The position numbers and the translations under genes are program-made. From Zootoca vivipara (Eukaryota), in NCBI RefSeq assembly GCF_963506605.1, contig NC_083276.1, forward strand, positions 1,302,001-1,366,000: DNA of 64,000 bases. The letters are read 5' to 3'. This document shows, piece by piece, positions 40,101-64,000 of the stretch (within the stretch, counting starts at the first letter, position 1; every line of letters begins with the position of its first letter). A model generated the notes under the pieces. That model was not told the DNA's origin. It made no database searches and saw nothing but the letters and a program-made list of their open reading frames with translations.

Positions 40101-42297
40101 CCTCATGGCCTGGGACTGGGCACCAGGTTTAGACACTAGGGACTGTTGCTAGGGTTCTCCCTGGCACAAGGATGTGTTGCAGAGCCTTTGACAAGTTAGC
40201 CTTTTCGGTCTCGGCTGCCGATAAAATGGTCAGTAAGAATTTACCACACTGCAGAATGAGCAGGAGAACAGGTCGGAAAGGAGCCTGGTTTCCCTGCTTC
40301 CTTTTTGATTATCTGAGATTAACTTGTTTTTCATATACTGTATCGGCTATTTCTTAAACAAAAGCAGCCCAGAATTCTAACTCCTTCACTGACTGTAGTT
40401 TTCAGAGATGATGGGATGCACGCTGACCAAAGTGGTCTGCAGCCTCTTCCTTTGTTTTGCCCTCCCCACAAGTGTTGGGAGTAGGCCACTTGGTGTGTGC
40501 TGTTGTCATGGGGCGTCCACCGTGTTTAGATCAGCATGCAGAGCCTGGTCAGCTCACTGCCTCTGCGTGAGGAAATGGGCTTCCAGCTGCTGTGGTCCTG
40601 TGCCCTTGTCTAGATCTTTGATGCCTTCAAGTCCCGCCTGCACGACTCCAACAGCAAAGTCAACCAGGTGGCCCTAGAGACAATGCACCGCCTGATTCCT
40701 CTGCTGAAAGAGAAGCTGTCCCCCATCATCAATATGCTGATACCTGCCTTGGTGGACAACAACCTGAATTCCAAGAATCCAGGCATCTACGCTGCTGCCA
40801 CAAACGTTATCCAAGCTCTTTGTCAACACTTAGGTAATGGGACCCTTTCAGCTACCAGCCACGGTTCAGAAAACAAGGTTGCGAAAAAGAATTCGCAGCA
40901 GGTTTGGGGCTGAGCAACCAGGAACTCTTGTTTCTTTTCCCACTGCTCAGTTTACGCATCTGTTCACTGTGCAGATGTTGGCACACTGCTGCTTTGTGTG
41001 TGCTTGAGGAATGTTTCCAAACTGGAGCAGGCCTTCAGCCAATTCTGATGGGGTGGGTGGGTGTTTAGGATTCCAAAGGCCTCATCCTGTATACTTCCCT
41101 GCCAGGGAATTCCAAAATAGCCCCTTCCTGGCTATTCTGTATCAAACACAGGATAAATGTAACCCTCCTGGGACTCCCATTGAGTTGGTTTTCTGTGTCC
41201 CTCCCTCCTCTGCATCTAGACAACTACCTGCTGCTTCAGCCGTTCTGCACAAAGGCCCAGTTTCTGAATGGGAAAGCCAAGCAAGACATCACGGAGAAGC
41301 TTGCAGGTAAGGCTCTTTTGCTTTGCTTCCGTGCCTTCGTACCCGGAGTTCACCCTTCCAGTATGAGCCTACGCAGGACCTGCTTGCCCGAAATTCTTTA
41401 CTGCTCTACAATGGCGTAGTTTGCTCTGCAGGGTCCGTGATGATGCCAGGCAGCTTGGAAGGTTGTTGGCAACCTAAAGGGTGTAAAACCAATGTGAAAT
41501 AGCCCATTGATGTCCCATCCCATTATAGCAGCTGAAAGCAGAGCAGTTGTTTAAGCTTAAGAACAGAGGAAGCCGCCTCACACACAGTCAGGCCATTGAT
41601 CCATCTAGGACAGTACTGTCTACACCAGGCATCCCCAAACTCAACTCTCCAGATGTTTTGGGACTACAACTCCCATCATCCCTAGCTAACAGGACCAGTG
41701 GTCAGGGATGATGGGAATTGTAGTCCCAAAACATCCGGAGGGCCGAGTTTGGGGATGCCTGGTCTACACGCATTGGCAGCAGGGGTCTCCCCTAACCCTA
41801 CCTGGGGATTGAAGCCAAGGCCTTCCACTGCTCTGCTGCTGAGCTGGGCCCTTCCCCACAAAGCTTCTTTGGAGCACCATGGGCTTAATGGATGGCCTTT
41901 CCAGAAGATGCTCTGACTTTGCATGCTTTTAGAGTTGCATTCTTGCTCAAGTTGAGCAGGCCAAGCCTCCTGCTGTGCATTTGGTGTGACCAGTTACTCC
42001 CCCTCTTTCCGTCTCCCCCCCCTTTTTGTTGTTCTGAATCCAGAGCTGGTGGTGGAGCTGTATCCTCGCAAGCCTCACGCTGTGGAGCAGAAGGTCTTGG
42101 TGGTCCTGTGGCACCTGCTGGGCAACATGACAAACAGCGGCTCCTTGCCCGGAGCTGGCGGGAATATTCGGACAGCCACTGCTAAATTGTCAAAAGCGCT
42201 TTTTGCACAAATGGGTCAGAACCTGCTGGTCCAAGCTTCATCCCAGTCCCCCCACATCAAAAGAACTCTGGAAGAATTCCTTGACCAAGCTACCTGA
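17724..42297 (+). CDS. TOGARAM1: TOG array regulator of axonemal microtubules 1 (Crescerin-1/FAM179B); ~21 coding exons, ~1473 aa, TOG2-TOG3-TOG4
   Basis: Exons 17724-18875, 21955-22006, 26645-26929, 28238-28500, 28815-29047, 29737-29837, 30818-30985, 31467-31565, 32295-32473, 33417-33573, 33956-34033, 34245-34398, 34525-34630, 35979-36214, 37150-37308, 38101-38227, 39226-39347, 39518-39707, 40614-40833, 41220-41306, 42044-42297. All are GT-AG and phase-consistent, 4422 nt in total. Motifs LLDDSNFKV, VQARLARKTLPRL, NSWPLKSFEGL, DWEKKIEGL, KNLRSVVSRAA and LHDSNSKVN match recalled human TOGARAM1, which is also head-to-head with KLHL28 in human. Confidence 0.95.
19944..20408 (+). mobile_element. 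CR1 LINE 3' fragment (ORF2 C-terminus plus 3' UTR)
   Basis: Translation [31 protein letters not shown]...TRSNGFKL...IRKNFLTVRAV is a typical CR1 C-terminus; TTCTATGATTC tail. Confidence 0.9.
20983..21124. mobile_element. Small hAT-like MITE
   Basis: AGGGCTGTCCAA...TTGGACATGCCTG termini, flanks CATTAGAC/CATTAGAG (7 of 8 identical), internal GTAGATC repeats; a related end lies at ~37630-37892. Confidence 0.6.
22566..23196. mobile_element. AT-rich non-autonomous hAT transposon, 631 bp
   Basis: Termini CAGGGTGGAT.../...ATCTACCCTG, perfect 8-bp TSD AATGAAAG (22558-22565 and 23197-23204), subterminal TTTAAATC repeats. Confidence 0.85.
23545..23587. repeat. Compound (CT)n(AT)n microsatellite
   Basis: Directly visible in the sequence. 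Confidence 0.9.
24293..24363. mobile_element. Half copy of the 136-bp hAT MITE
   Basis: GGACCAGTAGTCAGGGATGATGGGAATTGTAGTCCCAAAACAGCTGGAGGGCCAAGTTTGGCCAT matches the right arm. Confidence 0.7.
27417..28101 (+). mobile_element. L2 LINE 3' fragment with open ORF2 C-terminus and (ATT)n tail
   Basis: ORF 27430-27996 is nearly identical to the C-terminus of 10679-11731. Confidence 0.9.
33046..33069. repeat. (GT)n microsatellite
   Basis: Directly visible in the sequence. Confidence 0.9.
35255..35720 (-). mobile_element. Older decayed L2 fragment
   Basis: Degenerate ICHWP..KVLL.VYKTLNSLG.VYL translation and AGAGTGCATTGCAGTTATCCAG similarity to the L2 copies. Confidence 0.6.
36510..36545. repeat. 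(GAAAT)n pentanucleotide microsatellite
   Basis: 7 tandem GAAAT units. Confidence 0.95.
38450..38585. mobile_element. Palindromic hAT MITE, 136 bp
   Basis: CAGGCACCCCCAAAC...GTTTGGGGGTGCCTG with perfect TSD CTTTAGAC (38442-38449 and 38586-38593). Confidence 0.9.
41626..41761. mobile_element. Palindromic hAT MITE nested in a Squam3-like SINE (~41560-41855, minus)
   Basis: CAGGCATCCCCAAAC...GTTTGGGGATGCCTG with perfect TSD GTCTACAC (41618-41625 and 41762-41769). Confidence 0.9.
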
Positions 42298-43265
42298 AGC
42301 AGACTGAGCAGGTGCAGGTGTGTGCATGAGTAAATGCACCTACATGGACAGTACGGTTCCTACAGGTTACTGAATAGCTGACAGCAAACTATTTTCCATG
42401 GGGTCGAGTGGAGCACCCCCCTCCCTCGCTGCATTCCTTCACAGTGCCTGTGCTTTTCACGTGGAAGTGGATTTGGATCGACTGCTTTTAATTACTGGGT
42501 TTTCCTTCCCCCTGGTGCACGTCCTAGGCCGAAACCAAAATCAAAATCAGTATGATGCTTGGGAACTCTCCCCCCTCTGGTGCTGTTCCAAGAATTCTGT
42601 GGAGTTGAGGAATGGATGTCTTGCGAAAGCAAAAGTCAGCTCTGCTTGTTTGCACTCTTCTTTAGACTCGGTGGGACAATGCCCTGTGTGTGTGCTAACG
42701 AAGATGAGATTTTAAAAATAGGAATAGTTCTAATCATGAAATCATGTTATGGCATGTCTTCTCATGTAGCCTTAAGAGGGAGGGGGGAAAAACTTTTGAG
42801 AGGCACATTCATAAAGAACAGGGTTCTGTGTGATGTTTGTGGAAAAAAATTGTATTTTTAAAATCAGTCCCAGTCATGATTGTGCAGTGTTCGCTTGCTT
42901 TTGCTGCTGCTGTTGATGTATTACATCTGCTTGACAGTTGGGCATCATTATCTGCACACTCTTGTAAAACTTTTAACAGGTTATAATGAAGCATGTTGAC
43001 CAAAATTTATAGAAAACAAATAATTTTTACATATTTTGAACAACACGTCTTAAAAGAAATGTCATGTTTTGAATATAGCTTCCATATTTTAGTGTGAAAA
43101 ATAATACTGAATTTATCTGTCCAGAATTTATAAAGGTGTTCAAGTTTTCTGCCCTGCTGTGCAATCCTCAGCGATCTAGTGCCAGTTATTCCTTCTGCTC
43201 TCGAAATTTTACCATCTACAAGTACTGTATTCATTTGAAACACACAAAACAAAATGTTATAAAAA

Positions 43266-43271
43266 AATAAA
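43266..43271 (+). terminator. Probable TOGARAM1 poly(A) signal AATAAA
   Basis: AATAAA about 970 nt after the stop codon, at the end of an AT-rich UTR-like stretch. Confidence 0.65.
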
Positions 43272-43275
43272 TGGA

Positions 43276-43281
43276 TTTATT
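43276..43281 (-). terminator. Candidate POLE3 poly(A) signal (AATAAA on minus strand)
   Basis: TTTATT at 43276-43281, about 2 kb downstream of the POLE3 stop codon. Confidence 0.5.
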
Positions 43282-45258
43282 TCTGTAAAAATGATTCCCT
43301 CATGTTGCTGGACTTGAAATTTACTTTGGGAGCTTCAGCATAAAATGTATGCAATGAAAATCCCCATGGAAGGAGGGGGGAAGTGGCAGGCAAGATGCAC
43401 CATTCTGGAAAGAAATTGTTGGGAGGTCAGGATCGGACCATTTAGCTCACTACTGTACTGTGCATAATTAGTCTTCTATGTGGAAAGTTTGCGAGTTGGG
43501 GATATCCTATGCTGCAGCCATATGAACCTTCTAAGAAAGTTCATGTCAGCAACGCCACTTTCAGAGATTGCTTTATGGAACAAACCTTTTGATGGAGGGA
43601 AGAGGTGAGGAGTGGGGGAAGCAGACACACTAATCCTCTTTTCCAAAGGATTGGCCCCATCCTTGCAAAGTGTAACCAAGGGTGTCAGGGGTACTCAGCT
43701 CATGGCACAGCCTCTATTAAGGGGGAGCAGTGGGCTTTGTCCAGTTGGGGGGATCTGGAGTGTGTGTTCCTAGCATTAGGCAAGCAGGATAGGTTAGGGA
43801 TTGTGCTGCTTCTGCCCAGCAGTCTCCCTGCCCTGAGTTGACAGCTGGCCCAACACGTGGGGAAAGACACACTCTGGACCTTGTTTTCTTGACTGGGCAG
43901 GAAGAGGGTGGTCTGAAAGTGGGGGGCATGGACATCAGCCCCGGTCAGATCACTTCCTGTTGCGAATCAGGCTTTCGGCACCTTTTCTCCTCCACGAAGG
44001 CGGGGGATCTACCAGTATTAGGATGGCCCAGCCTCAGGGACTCTTTAGCAAGAGCTGGGAAATAGCAGCTCAGCTAAACTAGATCCAGAAAACACCAACT
44101 GGAGAGCAGCATGAGGCGTAGAGGAACAGGCAGGGGATGGCTTCCCAGGTCCCAATAAAAATGTCACCCCCACCACACGGGACGTGGACTGCTCTCTTAC
44201 TTAAGAGGCTCCTGCGGGGCCACAATGTTGAGGAGCTTGAACTTCTGATGTGTAAACACAAAAGCACACTTGAGCTCAGGGGAAATAATAGGTAATTTTG
44301 CTGTGGGGATCCTACTGGATGCTTAGATGAGAAGTTTGGTGCCTGCAGGTATTCAAAGAAGATAAATCACTATATGGGTAAAAACCACAAATTTAAACTG
44401 TTTAATAGATGTGCAATTGTTTCTTGAACATCTTAACCAGGATATTTTTTATATAGCCTGTTTACTCAAGGTGGTTTTTATTGTATTTTCCTTAATCATA
44501 TGGCAAATCCCATCTTACCTCATTTTTTGGCAATTAAAGTGTCCATTTGAACTGGGCTATCAACTTGTTTTGCTGCATCTATTTTATACATAAAATAACG
44601 TCCATAAGTTATGATCCAATTTTGAGAGTAACTGCATATACTTTTTTTAAATGTGCTTTTCTCAGTGCTGCATGGTCAGGAATTGTTCCTCTTTGACTAA
44701 CCCTCCATCCACTCACATCCCATTCAATGCTCTTTTCAAAATGACTTGCTGGCTTCCCGTTCTGCCACACTTCAAACCTGCCTAGTCTCCACTGCTACCC
44801 ACCAGAGCAGAGAGCCTCATGGGCACAATTTGCTGCCCATGAATGTTACCCTGAACAGCTGTCACCTGACAAAGCCTGGAAATTCCAACTATGAACAAAA
44901 AAACCAACAAATGAATTGTTACAAATTAAATGATGGGTGTAATGATCCTGATGAACCTATGTGGGCAGAAACACTGAATCCACCTGCAGACACTCCAAGT
45001 GGAGTAACTGATCCAGGATCTCCTCCAAAGTCTGCAGTGCTCTCTTGGGACCACTTGATCCAGTAGGCCCATTTCCATGTGCAAGCTCATCCCCGGCACG
45101 GGAATGAAGGAAAAGCACAGAGATTCAGGTGGTGTTGGGGGTTCAACCAAAGTTCAAATCCCCACTCAGTCTCAGACCAGGAACCATATTGCCTCTTCTG
45201 CTTCACAGCTGGTTCTGATGGTGCAATAGGGCTGCCCAGAGCTGAAATCCTAAGCGAC

Positions 45259-47568
45259 TTAGCTGTCTCCTTCCTCCCCCTCCTCCTCATTTTGCTCCTC
45301 CTCCTCCATCCTTTCATCCTCCTCTTCGTTCTCATCGCCTCGGTTCTTCTCAGGGTCTTCTGGATCTCCCTTCTTGTCTTTGTCTTTTTTCTTTAACTCT
45401 GAGGCTCCCTTTTTGCCTTTCTGCTCACGCCTGTAAGCTAGAAGGAGAAGCAACCATCAAAACAAGCCCAGGCAGTGGCTATTATCACCACACACCTGGG
45501 CACAGGTGAATGCGAACCAGAAGCTGAACAGAGGAAACTTGAGCATTTACCTTCTAAGGATTCCTTTAAGGGGACGACAAATCTCTGGAACTCCATTTCC
45601 TCCATGGCTGAGAGGACGTCTGCAGCATTCAGCGTCTTTCTTTTCCCCTTCATTGCAAAATTATTGGCACTAATTAAGGAGAACGCAAAGGAAAAATTAC
45701 TCACCCATCACTAGTGAGAATCTTCCACAAGTCTTTTTCCCTTGGAAAAATTAAACTTCGAATAATTAATTATCTTCCCCCAATTATCTGCCCCCATAAA
45801 ATTAAACAGCAGCAAAATGAATGGCTACACAGTGCAACGATGTGGTTTCAAAGCTTTAATTTTTTTCCCAGGTGACTATCCGTATGAAAAACATACATGC
45901 ACATATATCAATGCACAGCTCTTTTGAGGGTACTAAAAAAACATCTTAATTTTCAAGACCACCATTGTTTAAATAACTTTTTATGGGGAGGCATGGCTTG
46001 CCATGGTGCAAGATGGCAGCATGACCTAATTTCTCCCATCAATTGGACCAATAGGATTTGTATTGAAGCCTTTGTTGATATACAACAATGTCTGCGTTGT
46101 TCTGTACTGTCCACCTTATGGAGCTTGAGGCTACTGGAAGGCTGGAGCGCCACCAAACTTATTGCATTATGTTTGTGTTTGTGTTATTAAAACTGGTATG
46201 GTCATTATTCTTATAAACAACATATAAATTGCAAGTCAGTGTTGTGAAATGTCACACAGGAAAGGTGCGTGTTGCACAATTGTGAAGGGACAGCCCAAGC
46301 TCTCTTTACTTTTTGTAGACCGAGTAAACAAAAAAATATTAAAACCTATCGACATGACCACAACCAGTTCCACTAGCCACAGAGCACTGTCAGTAAGTAA
46401 AAATGTTGAGAGGCTTGAGCTTATCCAGTCCGGCTCATGGGCCTCACCAGCAGCAACACTCACTCACCATGATGTGGCGTACAACACAAACACACTGGCA
46501 GCTCGGGAGATCGCACTTCGGGCTTCTTTGGAAATATTTACTCCGTCAGGAAGCTGAGGGAAAAGAGGTGTGTGTAAGCCTGGGAGATCCATGTCGTGTC
46601 TGCATTTAGCAGGCACCAGCTGCCAGCAGCGTTCTGTCCCACTCCCAATCAACACACATCCGACACAGCACTTCTGCCTCTGTTGAGTTCTCCCTCTCCC
46701 TCTGTCTTGCACACCAACCACTAGCGCCTGTCTTCTCCAACGCTCCAGATTCCCAGCATCTTGTCCACTTACTCATGGCTCCCACGGCACCGAAAGTATT
46801 TTTACAGGAATTTCAACCATATAATGAAACATGATTTTATAAGACAAATACGTAAAAACCAAACCAAGGCTGGCACGGAATGTTACATTCAGCGGAGAGA
46901 ATGTTAAAGCAGGTTGTCTGGGTAGCGGCAATAAGATAAAGGCAGGTAAATAGAGAGCGAATGAGAGAACAAGAGGCGAAGCCCACAGGACTTGTAAGTT
47001 GTACAGAAACACAAACCTTTAACTGAAGCCAACAGAGGCACAAGGAGTACTAAGAACAGGGCTCATCCACACGAGGTTTTTTCTTTTGTTGTGCCACTTT
47101 CCCCGGAAAAACCTGCTGTTTGTACTGCTGAACAAAGGCCAATCCACAGAAAACCCCATCGATGTTTGTTCCGATTCAACAGCAAACAGTGGGTTTCCCT
47201 GGGGAATGCGGCTGGAAAAACAAGAAAAGAAACTACTGAGGGCAACCCTGTATCGGGAGATTTTTAATGTTTGGGTATTTCTGGAGGGCTGGGGAAACCC
47301 AGCCAGATAGGTGGGGTATATTGTCGTTGTTATTATTAATTGAGTTTATATACCGCTCTATACCGGTAGGTAGAATATAATAAAGTTATTATTCTAATTT
47401 TGTATGATAACAACCACCATGATATAATTGCTGCTCTTGCCTGAAGCCCTGGGGCAAAAGGTGGAAGTGGGCCTGAGCCCCGAGAGGTTGCCTATTACTC
47501 ACGGCTTCCTTCATGATGCGAGTGATGACAGCGTTGGGCAGGTTCAGGTCTTCGGGACGTTCTGCCAT
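45259..47568 (-). CDS. POLE3: DNA polymerase epsilon subunit 3 (CHRAC17, histone fold with acidic tail); 4 coding exons, 149 aa
   Basis: Coding exons 47568-47503 ([22 protein letters not shown]), 46553-46468 ([28 protein letters not shown]), 45669-45551 ([15 protein letters not shown]...) and 45437-45259 (YRREQKGKK...EEEGEEGDS*). GT-AG, 450 nt in frame. Acceptor at 47583/4, with a probable UTR exon 1 ending at 47945. Confidence 0.97.
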
Positions 47569-48680
47569 GGCGCCCCCGGAGCCTGGGGAAAGGGAGGGGG
47601 GACACGGCGACCAAGGGGGTTATTTGTGCGCCTCTCCCCCCCACCCCGACCTGCGCAGCGACGGCCTTTGGGCGGCTCTTTCCCTCGCTCCGCGTCCCTC
47701 ACGAGACCCCCTGGTCCCCGCCTCCCTCACGGACAGGCCTTTGGTTCTCGCAGGCGCCTTTGGAGCTCCCCGCGCAGGGGAAGAACCGCCTGAATAAATC
47801 AACGGGCCACCGCTCCCCCCCAAAGGAATGTCCGCCCACGGCCTCCCCCCTCACCGCCCCGGAGTCTAGGGCCGACCTTTCGCCCTCCGCAGCCTCCCGC
47901 GCGAGGGTGCCCCTGAGCATGCACAGAGCGCGGCGCCCACTCACCGCTCCCCTCCGTCGCCGCCAGCAACGGTCGCTCGGAAGGCGCGCCAAGAGGGGCC
48001 GCCTCAGCGCGCTCCCGGCATGCAGCGCGCCTGCGCACGCGCGGCGGAAAGAGCGCCTCGTCGCCACAGGGGTCGTCGCAACGACGCTTCCGGCTGCTCT
48101 GCCTCTGCTGTAACGGAGCGGTTGTTTGCCCTCACGCCGGTCGGCTCCTGCCCATGGCTGCCAAGTTTTCCCTTTTCTCGCGAGGAAGCCTATTCAGCAA
48201 AAAGGAATTTCCCTTAAAAAAGGGAGAACTTGGCAGCTATGCGAAGGAGCCGCGGAAAAGGGGGCGGCGACCCTCGACACGCTTCGGAGCCCTTGTCCCG
48301 CATATGGCGGCGGGACGAACAGGAGCCGGAAGTTTGGGGCCGCGAAGTAGCGCCACCCCGACAACGCTTTGCGAAGAGCGCTCCGCGTCCGCGCCTCTCT
48401 GTCCCGCGCAGTGCACCCTGGGAAGAGGGCGCGGGAGAAGGAGAGGGCGCTTGACGTTGCTTAGCAACCAGAGAGCGGCCCGGCTTAGCCCAGGTGGGGG
48501 AGAAAAGGGCGGGAAAATGGGTCGAGGGCGGGGGGAGGGGAGTGCCGGAATCCTTTCCTCACAGAACAGCCCCTCCCCCCCCGCGCGGTCGTCAGTGACG
48601 GGGGGGTCGGATTAGCACGGCGATGTGGCGAAGGAGCCCCTGAGCATGCACAGAGCGCTTCCCCCCCACACACACACCTC
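47480..48680. promoter_or_regulatory. CpG island / bidirectional promoter of POLE3 and the C9orf43-like gene
   Basis: High CpG density. Motifs: NRF1 GCGCCTGCGC at 48027-48036, ETS CTTCCGG at ~48087, half-CRE TGACG at 48452 followed by RFX X-box GTTGCTTAGCAAC at 48456-48468, and GC boxes. Confidence 0.85.
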
Positions 48681-49419
48681 GGTGGTTGACTCTTTGTTCC
48701 TGTCCTTCTCAAACTCTGGGGTGCAACATTTCCTTTAAATTCGTATCCTCTTTACCTCCTCCTATCTGGAGACGCTTTGCAGCATAAGGAACAAAATTGG
48801 GGGGGGGGGGAAATCACAGCACATTTAAAAACATCAGCAACAAAATACATACTGTACAGTAGTAACAAAAACAAACTAGTTAAGATGACAGCTAAAAGAA
48901 TCAAGACAGCCTTGAAATAATGATTGTCCTGATAGCGGACTTACTTCCGAGTAGACACATATGGGATTGGCTCTTCCCTTACACACGCCACCTGTTTTAT
49001 CCGGACAACAACTCTGCAAGCTAAGTCAGGCCAGCAGAGAAAGATGGAGGGAGAGCCACCAGCCCCAGGCCATGGGGAACCAGGCAGCTTCCCATCCCAT
49101 CCGAGGCTGTTGTAATCGGTGTGCAAGGTCTTCCGGCCCTGGGCATCTCTTGGTTTAAAAAGCACGACAACTACTCTTGCACCCACATCATCTCACTTAA
49201 AAAGTTGTAGTTACAGGTAGGTAGCCGTGTTGGTCTGAGGTAGTCGAAACAAAATAAAAAAATTCCTTCCAGCAGCAAAAACACAAAAAGTTGTGTTTGC
49301 CAGGTCAGGTTTTCACCAGGGGCATCTCTGGATTGTGCCCCAATGAATGTTTTTCCATACTTTTAAATACAATATATTTTTTGCATAAGAGCCCAGTTTA
49401 AGGTGTCTTAAAGGAGGGG

Positions 49420-49457
49420 GGGGTCACGAAGAGTCGGACACGACTAAACAACAACAA
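49420..49457 (+). mobile_element. BovB/RTE 3' terminal remnant
   Basis: GGGGTCACGAAGAGTCGGACACGACTAAACAACAACAA is the characteristic BovB 3' end. Confidence 0.65.
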
Positions 49458-49989
49458 AGGAGGGGGAGGGAGTTTTTATGCATGCAGCTGTGTATTTATT
49501 CTGTAAAGCACCATGTGATCCTCGGATAAAGGCCGGTATATAAATTTGATTAAAAATGAAGTTACTTTGCCATCTTTCCCCTTTGCAAACCAGAGGAAGG
49601 TTTTGCCTTTTTTTCTTCAGGAAATAAGCAGGCTATTGGATGGGAAACGAATGGCTTGGACACCTCTTGACATGCCCTGGTTGCCTTGATCTCTGCTCAC
49701 ATGATCTGGACCAGGAAGGCTCTCTCCATCTTAATGAAGGGGAGGTTTTCTAAAGACCCAGGACTTAGCTATACAGCTGTAAAGAAAATGTTTTAAAAGT
49801 GTTGTAAAGTGCAATATACAAATGTGGCACTGACTAGATGGTAACAGTGAACTATGCAAAAATCATTGTACTTTTTCAACAACAAAATTTTTTTTAAAGC
49901 ATTTCCACAATGTTTTTTATATATGTGTGCAAATTCCACCCCAGTGGGGTTCTAACCAGCAGCAGGACAGTTACTGGCCAGCAATCTGT

Positions 49990-50107
49990 CATAGAATCAT
50001 AGAGTTGGAAGAGACCACAAGGGCTATCCAGTCCAACCCCCTGCCAAGCAGGAAACACCATCAAAGCATTCCTGACATATGCCTGTCAAGCCTCTGCTTA
50101 AAGACTC
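49990..50107 (-). mobile_element. CR1 LINE 3' terminal fragment
   Basis: Reverse complement of the 8270-8390 CR1 end. Confidence 0.85.
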
Positions 50108-50172: not shown

Positions 50173-52175
50173 ATGGCGACCATCGATGCCAGTCAGTGGG
50201 ATGAAACCATTTGTGATAGGATTGCCTGCCAACACCCTCCCTGCTGGGAGACAATCCAGAGGATCGTGAAAGGGCAGCCCCGGATCATGTTGAGAAGCCT
50301 TGACTCTCCGGAGGGAGATTCCCCCGAACCTGAAGGTAAGCCAGAAAAACTCTCACCCTGCACAATACGCTAAATTTATTGATTAAATTTATATATCACC
50401 CTTCATCCGGGGAGCACAGGTTTACGGTATAAAAACACAAAAAGATGTAACATAATAACAAATAACAACAATTTAAACAACAACCCCCTCACCGTTTAAA
50501 AGGCCCAAGATGGTTATTCTTAGTTATTAAATGTATATGCTTCTGATAGAAATTGAATGCCAAACTATACTAGCCAAGTTTGACCCTATAGCTGTTGCAA
50601 GCAGTCTTCTTCTTTGGCGATCCCTCGTAGCCGAGTAAGATTGTCTTCCATAAACACGGCTTTAACAATGAGTCCGTTAGTGACTGTGGAGGCCAATTCT
50701 GGATCCACACGGCCTTCCACAGTGGGGACATTGGTTTCCGAGTGGGAGTTGATCACAGTGAGGGTTTGCCAGGCATGCCTTCCTCTTAGCACGTTTCTCC
50801 CTTGTGTCCTGAGATCGAGTGTCTTCAAAGCCCAGGACACCTTTGGTCAAGGCTGTTCTCCAACTGGAAGTCTCACCACCCATTCCTTTCTGCCTTTCCT
50901 TCTGTAGCTGGAGGGCTCTTCACTTTGGTTTTTCCATGTTTCAGATGAACTGCCAACGCTAAAGATTGTGGACCTTCCCCTCAACTATTCTCAAAGAGAT
51001 CAGATCAGATCTGCTGAAAATTTACTTTCCATCTCGAAAACTATCTCAAGCATCAAAGATTATAGAAGTTACTTTTCAGATACCACCCTGAACAATGCTT
51101 TGGTGCCCCCAATTTCGCGAATCAGGTGAGCACTTTGAGGTTTCCCATAAAAATATGTGCTTCTGGAATCACAGGCTTTGGGTGTCTGATGTGACTAATG
51201 CATTCTTTTGCTGCTTCCATGAATTAGATCCATTCTGGTGCCCTTGGGGAAAAATCCTCATGACAGCCGCCCCCCCCCCCCAGACAGAGGAGGAATCTAT
51301 AGCAGGAAAGATAACCTCCCATGACACTTGCCTGCACAACCCCCATTGAAACAAACTGGAGCTGAGCAGATACATTGCAGTATCATTATGGAAACCCCAT
51401 ATGTTTAAACGAGGCGCTTGCAACAGTTGAGCTGACTGGTGGGTTGTGCCCTGTGTCAATTCATGCTTTTGGCCATGTGGTTTTTCCCAGTTCCGAAAGG
51501 TATCCCTTCCCAGGACTGAACTCCAGGATGGAAACTCGCACTTCCCACTTCACACCGATAGAGAAAGTGAGTTCTGTGGATTGCTGGGAAGCCGGCTGTG
51601 GGTTGGGGGGTTGGAGAGAGACAGTAGGTCATGAGGGGCAACTTACACATGGCCAGGGTCCTGCTGGCTCAGTAGTACTTAGTAAGCACTTCCAGGAAGA
51701 GGCTGCTTTGCGCTGCTCTCTCTGTCTACCTGGCTGCTTCCACAAGCTTCCACAAGCATAATAGCTGAAGCATTGCCTACCAGCCCTTTGGTAGTTTATT
51801 ATTTTGCTCCATCCCCAGCCCCTCCACTGGCCCTTTAATTGGTAATTTCCCCCTAGCTTTGGATACAGTTGGCACTTTAATCGATTGCTTTCCCTTGGCA
51901 GCCTGAGTGCTCCTACCTCCTGCTTTTTAACTCCCTATATATTTTTATTACTGTGATTGCTCAATTAACGACATTGATTACTGCAGTTGCTTGATGGGAT
52001 TTCTTTGTAAGGGTGATAGAGAATTTGTAAGAAGGAAATAATATGCAAATGAAATTAATGGAGAAAAAAAGATAATATGGATTATGTGATTGGAAGTCTA
52101 GTGCACTAGGTGGGTGGTGATGGGGTATGATGTTGTGTGTGAAATGTATAATTTGTTTAATGTTTCCTTAATTTC

Positions 52176-63862: not shown

Positions 63863-64000
63863 TACAAAAGGAACCGTGACCCTTCCAATGTGTATCATTT
63901 AATACTTATTACAATAAAAAGAAATGAGCAGGAACGCAATGTTTTACTTGTATGTTGTTTGATTTTTATATGAACACTAAACAGGGGAAAGTAAAGTAAA

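Follow-up and report, generated by a model that had tools for sequence, protein, structure and literature searches.

The window analysed here, a 64-kb stretch of DNA (G000:C1:1302001-1366000) in a genome of 1.44 Gb, contains two genes that converge on a common 3' region, TOGARAM1 on the plus strand and POLE3 on the minus strand. TOGARAM1 was identified by the match of its exon-1 frame to FAM179B (5dn7; E 5.7e-91). Its last coding exon, placed at 42044-42297 from the translation and from a spliced loose end before 42041 in an RNA contig (X1), terminates with a TGA codon at 42295-42297, and the 3'UTR runs from 42298 to approximately 43290, with first-mate-minus depth of up to 60-129 in three RNA runs. 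The minus gene is presumably POLE3, a name taken over from a preliminary description of this DNA and from the known protein; its exon at 45552-45665, single copy in the genome, matches NF-YB-type histone folds (E ~1e-3). This exon is followed by an intron of 113 nt (45438-45550), with the joint 45437/45551 found in runs X20 and X21 and in X1, and by the last coding exon at 45259-45437, with the stop codon TAA at 45261-45259. The main form of the POLE3 3'UTR, ~0.9 kb long (44375-45258), showed first-mate-plus depth above 10 in 13 of the 18 run-bins over 44481-45224. No Pfam family was assigned to the short exons of TOGARAM1 and POLE3. At their other ends, POLE3 (ATG at 47568) and C9orf43 (ATG at 50173, plus strand) lie head to head over a CpG-rich stretch, and TOGARAM1 and a KLHL28-like Kelch gene on the minus strand diverge from a CpG island near 16-19 kb.

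Three raw RNA runs from one study (X20, X21 and X22, with ~6% of each read) and the contig set X1 were placed on positions 42001-45720. In a run index that recorded no RNA run as containing the words searched, six runs of organism A presumed to be RNA had 0.94, 0.73, 0.69, 0.62, 0.61 and 0.39 of them, and runs of organisms B-G had shares of 0.17-0.21; from this index, X1 alone serves as evidence here. X20 and X21 were re-read in 50-nt bins, which represent the same records as the first pass and are not independent of it. The first mate was opposite to the gene for 93-96% of the depth in both 3'UTRs, the wrong-orientation share being 4-7%. Spliced reads over the POLE3 joint 45437/45551 had an unexpected minus-mate in 4 of 4 cases in X20 and 15 of 22 in X21, possibly an effect of the read filter or of sampling, and mate orientation is thus unreliable at low depth. 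Peaks differed tenfold between runs within one exon, with run-specific peaks and troughs in both genes. Since no poly(A) loose ends were seen at any site in X20-X22 or X1, those of POLE3 included, all cut positions given below are predicted.

The palindromic element

An 18-bp inverted repeat, AAATAAAT-GG-ATTTATTT, consisting of two 8-bp arms and a GG spacer, was located at 43265-43282, between the stops of the convergent TOGARAM1 (42297) and POLE3 (45259). As the preliminary description had stated, each half of it contains an AATAAA, at 43266-43271 on the plus strand and at 43281-43276 on the minus strand, and both the repeat and its position between the two stops were confirmed. A motif scan of the window for AATAAA-N(0-11)-TTTATT returned this element as the sole occurrence.

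In the whole genome, AATAAA-N4-TTTATT is barely enriched (1850 occurrences vs 1684 for the reversed control); this is no real excess, and genome-wide selection for the arrangement is rejected. The form with 8-bp arms was counted 101 times vs 54 in the control, and among the matches listed many resemble (TAAA)n/(TTTA)n junctions. In the surrounding 264 kb, 6 of the 165 plus-strand AATAAA hexamers have a TTTATT no more than 30 nt downstream, and the same was obtained in 5.2% of simulations from the local AT-rich UTR sequence. A perfect 8-bp arm at the exact spacing of the palindrome was rare in simulation (8.5e-5), yet a double poly(A) signal works without a perfect arm, and a mirror hexamer next to such a signal, although uncommon, is nothing remarkable among thousands of gene ends. 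A hairpin role was rejected: the 18-mer alone forms no stable hairpin (MFE 0), and contexts of 71 and 111 nt on both strands gave z values of -0.22 to 1.06 vs shuffles. An origin from a repeat was likewise rejected, the segment 43150-43420 having a single match in the genome in a search that skips simple repeats.

RNA reads at the two gene ends

In X21, TOGARAM1-oriented depth was 113.5, 61.5, 9.5 and 0 over 43156-43355, 11 molecules began at 43268 (5) and 43273 (6), and no TOGARAM1 read extended beyond 43305. These reads support the earlier proposal that TOGARAM1 uses the plus-strand AATAAA, which is likely its ordinary full-length poly(A) signal. Cleavage is predicted at TA 43286/43287 or CA 43301/43302, and a TGTA (UGUA) at 43226-43229, 37 nt before the hexamer, is a candidate upstream element. 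Vertebrate cleavage has been described as taking place at a CA or UA located 10-27 nt past the hexamer, with an upstream UGUA (PMC11870849). Compared with the canonical vertebrate signal (CPSF/CstF/CFIm) as set out there, the TOGARAM1 end has the AAUAAA, a UA or CA in or near the 10-27 nt range, the candidate UGUA and the X21 read end, but the U/GU element that follows is of no more than moderate strength (U rank 64 and GU rank 119 of 322 local AATAAA sites). In both X20 and X21, TOGARAM1-oriented depth was absent past 43305 until a low background was reached, and in all three runs there was little beyond this position, the TOGARAM1-oriented depth of the spacer being 2.3% of its UTR level. A second plus-strand AATAAA at 44154-44159 has a weak downstream element (rank 281 of 322); X20 minus-mate depth of 2-3.6 over 43856-44205 ended near it, by 44255, and the hexamer may serve as a backup for TOGARAM1 read-through.

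RNA ending just downstream of the plus hexamer was found in one of the three runs (X21), and the other two faded earlier. In X20 the depth fell from 43.3 to 5.1 at ~43155, fading over ~43150-43200, and in X22 it fell from 54.8 to 0.02 at ~42991, where 8 molecules begin. Variant hexamers used for alternative polyadenylation may account for this early fading, or else uneven sampling. If the former applied throughout, TOGARAM1 would mostly end at AATGAA (42985) and TATAAA (43129), which are located at the drops in X22 and X20, and the palindrome would be its most distal site, used in some tissues. We regard this as unlikely, since the same two runs show the tenfold run-specific swings upstream and in POLE3 that indicate uneven sampling at 6%, and since 43266 is the only canonical AATAAA from the TOGARAM1 stop to 44154.

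POLE3-oriented depth peaked at 34, 130 and 71 within 44481-45224 in X20, X21 and X22, respectively. Towards the palindrome, the X21 coverage stopped inside 44356-44405: depth was 0 in all 24 bins over 43156-44355 and then 5.4, 18.7 and 21.6. This stop lies just past a minus-strand ATTAAA at 44406-44401, which is followed by a CA at +25 (44376/44375) and a U-rich tract (its U count would rank 14 of 322) and probably serves as the main poly(A) signal of full-length POLE3, with 44376/44375 as the predicted cut. A minus-strand AATAAA at 44482-44477 has a weak downstream element (rank 196 of 322) and a predicted cut at ~44460, which X21 reads pass (depth 18.7 in 44406-44455). The end at 44.38 kb was reached only in X21; X22 stopped near 44.6 kb, either by alternative polyadenylation or by patchy sampling. 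Early ends in X22 were seen for both genes (~42991 and ~44.6 kb) and could represent tissue-specific short 3'UTRs or uneven sampling.

The two read ends leave a spacer of ~1.05 kb (43306-44355) with 1-2% read depth in both orientations. Over 43365-44356, POLE3-oriented depth averaged 1.30, 0 and 0 in the three runs, i.e. 1.1% of its 3'UTR level, and no run-bin exceeded 2.24 (plus mate) or 3.36 (minus mate); the TOGARAM1-oriented depth of the spacer was the higher of the two. The region contains one spare AATAAA for each direction, plus-strand 44154 and minus-strand 43281. A contig of 4168 nt in X1 bridges the spacer, extending from a TOGARAM1 splice joint into POLE3 exons that are likewise spliced; the spacer is thus covered in that run, but the contig indicates neither the strand nor a single transcript.

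Proposed use of the two hexamers

Read depth thus stops separately for each gene, with 1-2% depth between, and we consider it probable that the plus AATAAA is the ordinary signal of TOGARAM1 and that POLE3 ends mainly ~1.1 kb earlier, likely at its own ATTAAA (44406-44401). Evidence against this explanation is that TOGARAM1 reads reach the hexamer in number in only one of the three runs, X21. In the standard vertebrate mechanism, CPSF binds AAUAAA and CPSF/CstF direct cleavage downstream. At this locus, CPSF would bind the AAUAAA at 43266 and the TOGARAM1 pre-mRNA would be cut ~15 nt (TA 43286/7) or 30 nt (CA 43301/2) downstream. The mirror half, UUUAUUU as read on the plus strand, would form a U-rich stretch ahead of the cut, and the A-rich sequence that precedes the plus hexamer could act as a downstream element when read on the minus strand. 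For POLE3, CPSF/CstF at 44406 would direct a cut near 44375, which the U/GU tract of this gene follows. The minus hexamer would then be incidental to the AT-rich end of TOGARAM1, catching at most the few POLE3 transcripts that run past their main site. Polymerases may still encounter each other in the spacer, as they may wherever convergent genes lie close together, and a shared element would be unnecessary for this; PCF11 has been described as guarding closely spaced convergent loci (bioRxiv 10.1101/491514).

It had been proposed that i) the one 18-bp element terminates both genes, ii) the two mRNAs overlap by a few tens of nucleotides, and iii) a ciliary and an S-phase gene could be coupled through this overlap. 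In favour of such a main terminator, with mRNAs that would usually overlap and be coupled through collision or through duplex formation, are the two canonical hexamers, the strong context of the minus one, the existence of such arrangements in zebrafish, and the single contig across both genes, subject to the limits on its strand and continuity given above. The proposal had named POLE3 transcripts ending near 44.4-44.6 kb as the contrary outcome, and this is what the RNA reads show: POLE3-oriented depth in the spacer is only 1.1% of that in the 3'UTR and is 0 in two of the three runs. Since POLE3 depth ends ~1.1 kb before the palindrome, the main mRNAs do not overlap, and coupling through overlapping mRNAs is unsupported. 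Moreover, POLE3 has signals of its own at 44406-44401 and 44482-44477, and the predicted overlap of 30-45 nt would be almost all A/U. A shared main terminator is therefore already largely refuted, and we regard it as extremely improbable.

A lesser role of the minus hexamer deserves more attention. The palindrome presents a signal and a downstream element readable on both strands, and the site on the minus strand is better formed than that on the plus strand (GU rank 4 vs 119 of 322). The AATAAA at 43281-43276 has a CA at +20, giving a predicted cut at 43256/43255, and is followed by a U/GU-rich tract at 43233-43254 that ranks 4 of the 322 AATAAA sites in 264 kb and 3 of 80 among similarly AT-rich ones. 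Three other sites score as high, two of them GT/TTG repeats and one the plus-strand AATAAA at 63913-63918, and the same GU score is reached by 32 of 270 windows on the minus strand of 42991-43300, windows that overlap and include the tract itself. The hexamer at 63913-63918 has the second-highest GU score of the 322 local sites and may be the poly(A) signal of C9orf43.

The palindrome could accordingly be an unequal bidirectional site, the main end of TOGARAM1 and a minor distal or fail-safe end of POLE3 in some tissues, which would give a POLE3 form with a 2.0-kb 3'UTR overlapping TOGARAM1 by ~30-45 nt. Besides the context of the minus hexamer and the contig spanning the spacer, reads in X20 point in this direction: 1181 plus-mate bases over 43156-43705 correspond to ~4 fragments, and the bin totals of 35, 50, 127, 165 and 150 can be decomposed, although not uniquely, into ~3 reads starting in 43256-43305, just inside the predicted cut. 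A further 240 plus-mate bases were found over 43117-43364 in X22. The X20 cluster consists of few fragments from sampling that looks clumped, with duplicates possible, and one of its plus-mate reads starts near 43171 and crosses the predicted cut. No plus-mate read was found in 43156-44355 in X21, the run with the most POLE3 RNA; in addition, the spacer depth leans towards TOGARAM1, mate orientation at this depth is unreliable, as the joint reads showed, and the GU score is not rare among the local windows. Taken together, the hexamer context and the X20 fragments make a minor distal POLE3 end possible, if rather less likely than its absence, and such use would add to the preferred explanation, with separate main ends, rather than replace it.

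Palindromic bidirectional poly(A) elements were reportedly described in C. elegans by Jan et al. in 2011. In zebrafish, according to a study that also cites C. elegans, such elements occur at convergent gene ends, and 797 pairs of opposite-strand poly(A) sites lie within 50 nt of each other, 336 of them within 10 nt (PMC3460199). The present locus shares with the elements outlined there the convergent genes, the mirror-image hexamers and an A-rich side that supplies the U/GU element of the other strand. However, those cases leave little or no intergenic space, whereas the main ends here are ~1.1 kb apart rather than within ~50 nt, separated by a ~1.05-kb spacer of 1-2% depth, and the second strand is at most a candidate for minor use. 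For ACAT2-TCP1 and MINK-CHRNE, overlap has been attributed to rearrangement followed by adoption of a signal in the neighbour's non-coding strand (PMC2151771). Similarly, POLE3 appears to have become the neighbour of TOGARAM1 by rearrangement, and a usable signal is present on the TOGARAM1 reverse strand, but POLE3 retains a signal of its own, and there is no overlap between its main mRNA and TOGARAM1. Yeast has bidirectional termination zones (bioRxiv 10.1101/2022.11.02.514956) and Arabidopsis has shared poly(A) regions (PMC3032780), which are also short zones lying between convergent genes and containing signals that can be read from either side; they differ in motifs and organisms, and no shared main end is present here. 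In anatomy the locus resembles the zebrafish and ACAT2-TCP1 types, but it lacks their defining feature, its main ends being non-adjacent and the POLE3 signal retained.

As the reads stand, this is an ordinary gene end. If minor use of the minus strand were confirmed, the locus would offer a compact case of a bidirectional poly(A) site that arose once a gene block had moved; since the bidirectional class has already been described in zebrafish and worms, it would add a member and a test case rather than a mechanism. In the body of literature searched, no publication treats both TOGARAM1 and POLE3, and none joins POLE3, C9orf43 and ALAD.

Gene order around POLE3

TOGARAM1 and PRPF39 (C1:1449235-1453776) enclose POLE3, a DUF4647 gene (C9orf43, from 50173 onward) and an exon with an RGS domain (C1:1434796-1435284); beyond PRPF39 is a BTHB gene (C1:1475402-1477705) that we take to be FKBP3. 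ALAD, a HAD hydrolase gene and a B-box/SPRY gene were found on C14 near 26.68-26.71 Mb (C14:26683562-26710000). The scan for neighbouring genes took in 122 of the 821 open frames listed, and further genes may lie in these stretches. The human gene orders are BSPRY-HDHD3-ALAD-POLE3-C9orf43-RGS3 and, on a different chromosome, KLHL28-TOGARAM1-PRPF39-FKBP3. If the human order is taken as ancestral, the separation of POLE3-C9orf43-RGS from ALAD suggests a lineage-specific move. On this comparison, a block of ~100 kb was likely moved between chromosomes, with a breakpoint in or near the spacer at 43.3-44.4 kb. Since the POLE3 block is apart from ALAD, unlike in the human order, the convergent pair likely arose by this move, and since the move likely took place in this lineage, there is no ground for taking a shared terminator to be ancient. 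No trace of the spacer was found beside ALAD by blastn of window positions 42001-50000 against C14:26600001-26720000, the only hits being short ones beyond 47100.

One may go further and suppose that, once the POLE3-C9orf43-RGS3 block had moved beside TOGARAM1, POLE3 took the reverse strand of the TOGARAM1 poly(A) site as a tissue-dependent second end, a combined scenario that we consider doubtful, and slightly more so than minor use of the minus hexamer taken by itself. If true, it would imply a POLE3 form with the 2.0-kb 3'UTR and the 30-45 nt overlap with TOGARAM1, POLE3 read-through stopped at the border of TOGARAM1, and an early phase of overlap formation along the ACAT2-TCP1 path, in which the old signal persists.

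Two intron-containing loci of the PRPF39 family were observed in the genome, at G000:C1:1449235-1453776 and G000:C17:28025244-28026895. Frames of Ty3/gypsy-type LTR retrotransposons were also found at L013:5214-10000 (Pfam gag, RT, integrase and chromo) and L034:6192-10000 (RT and integrase), one of the two falling between POLE3 and PRPF39 and the other upstream of ALAD.
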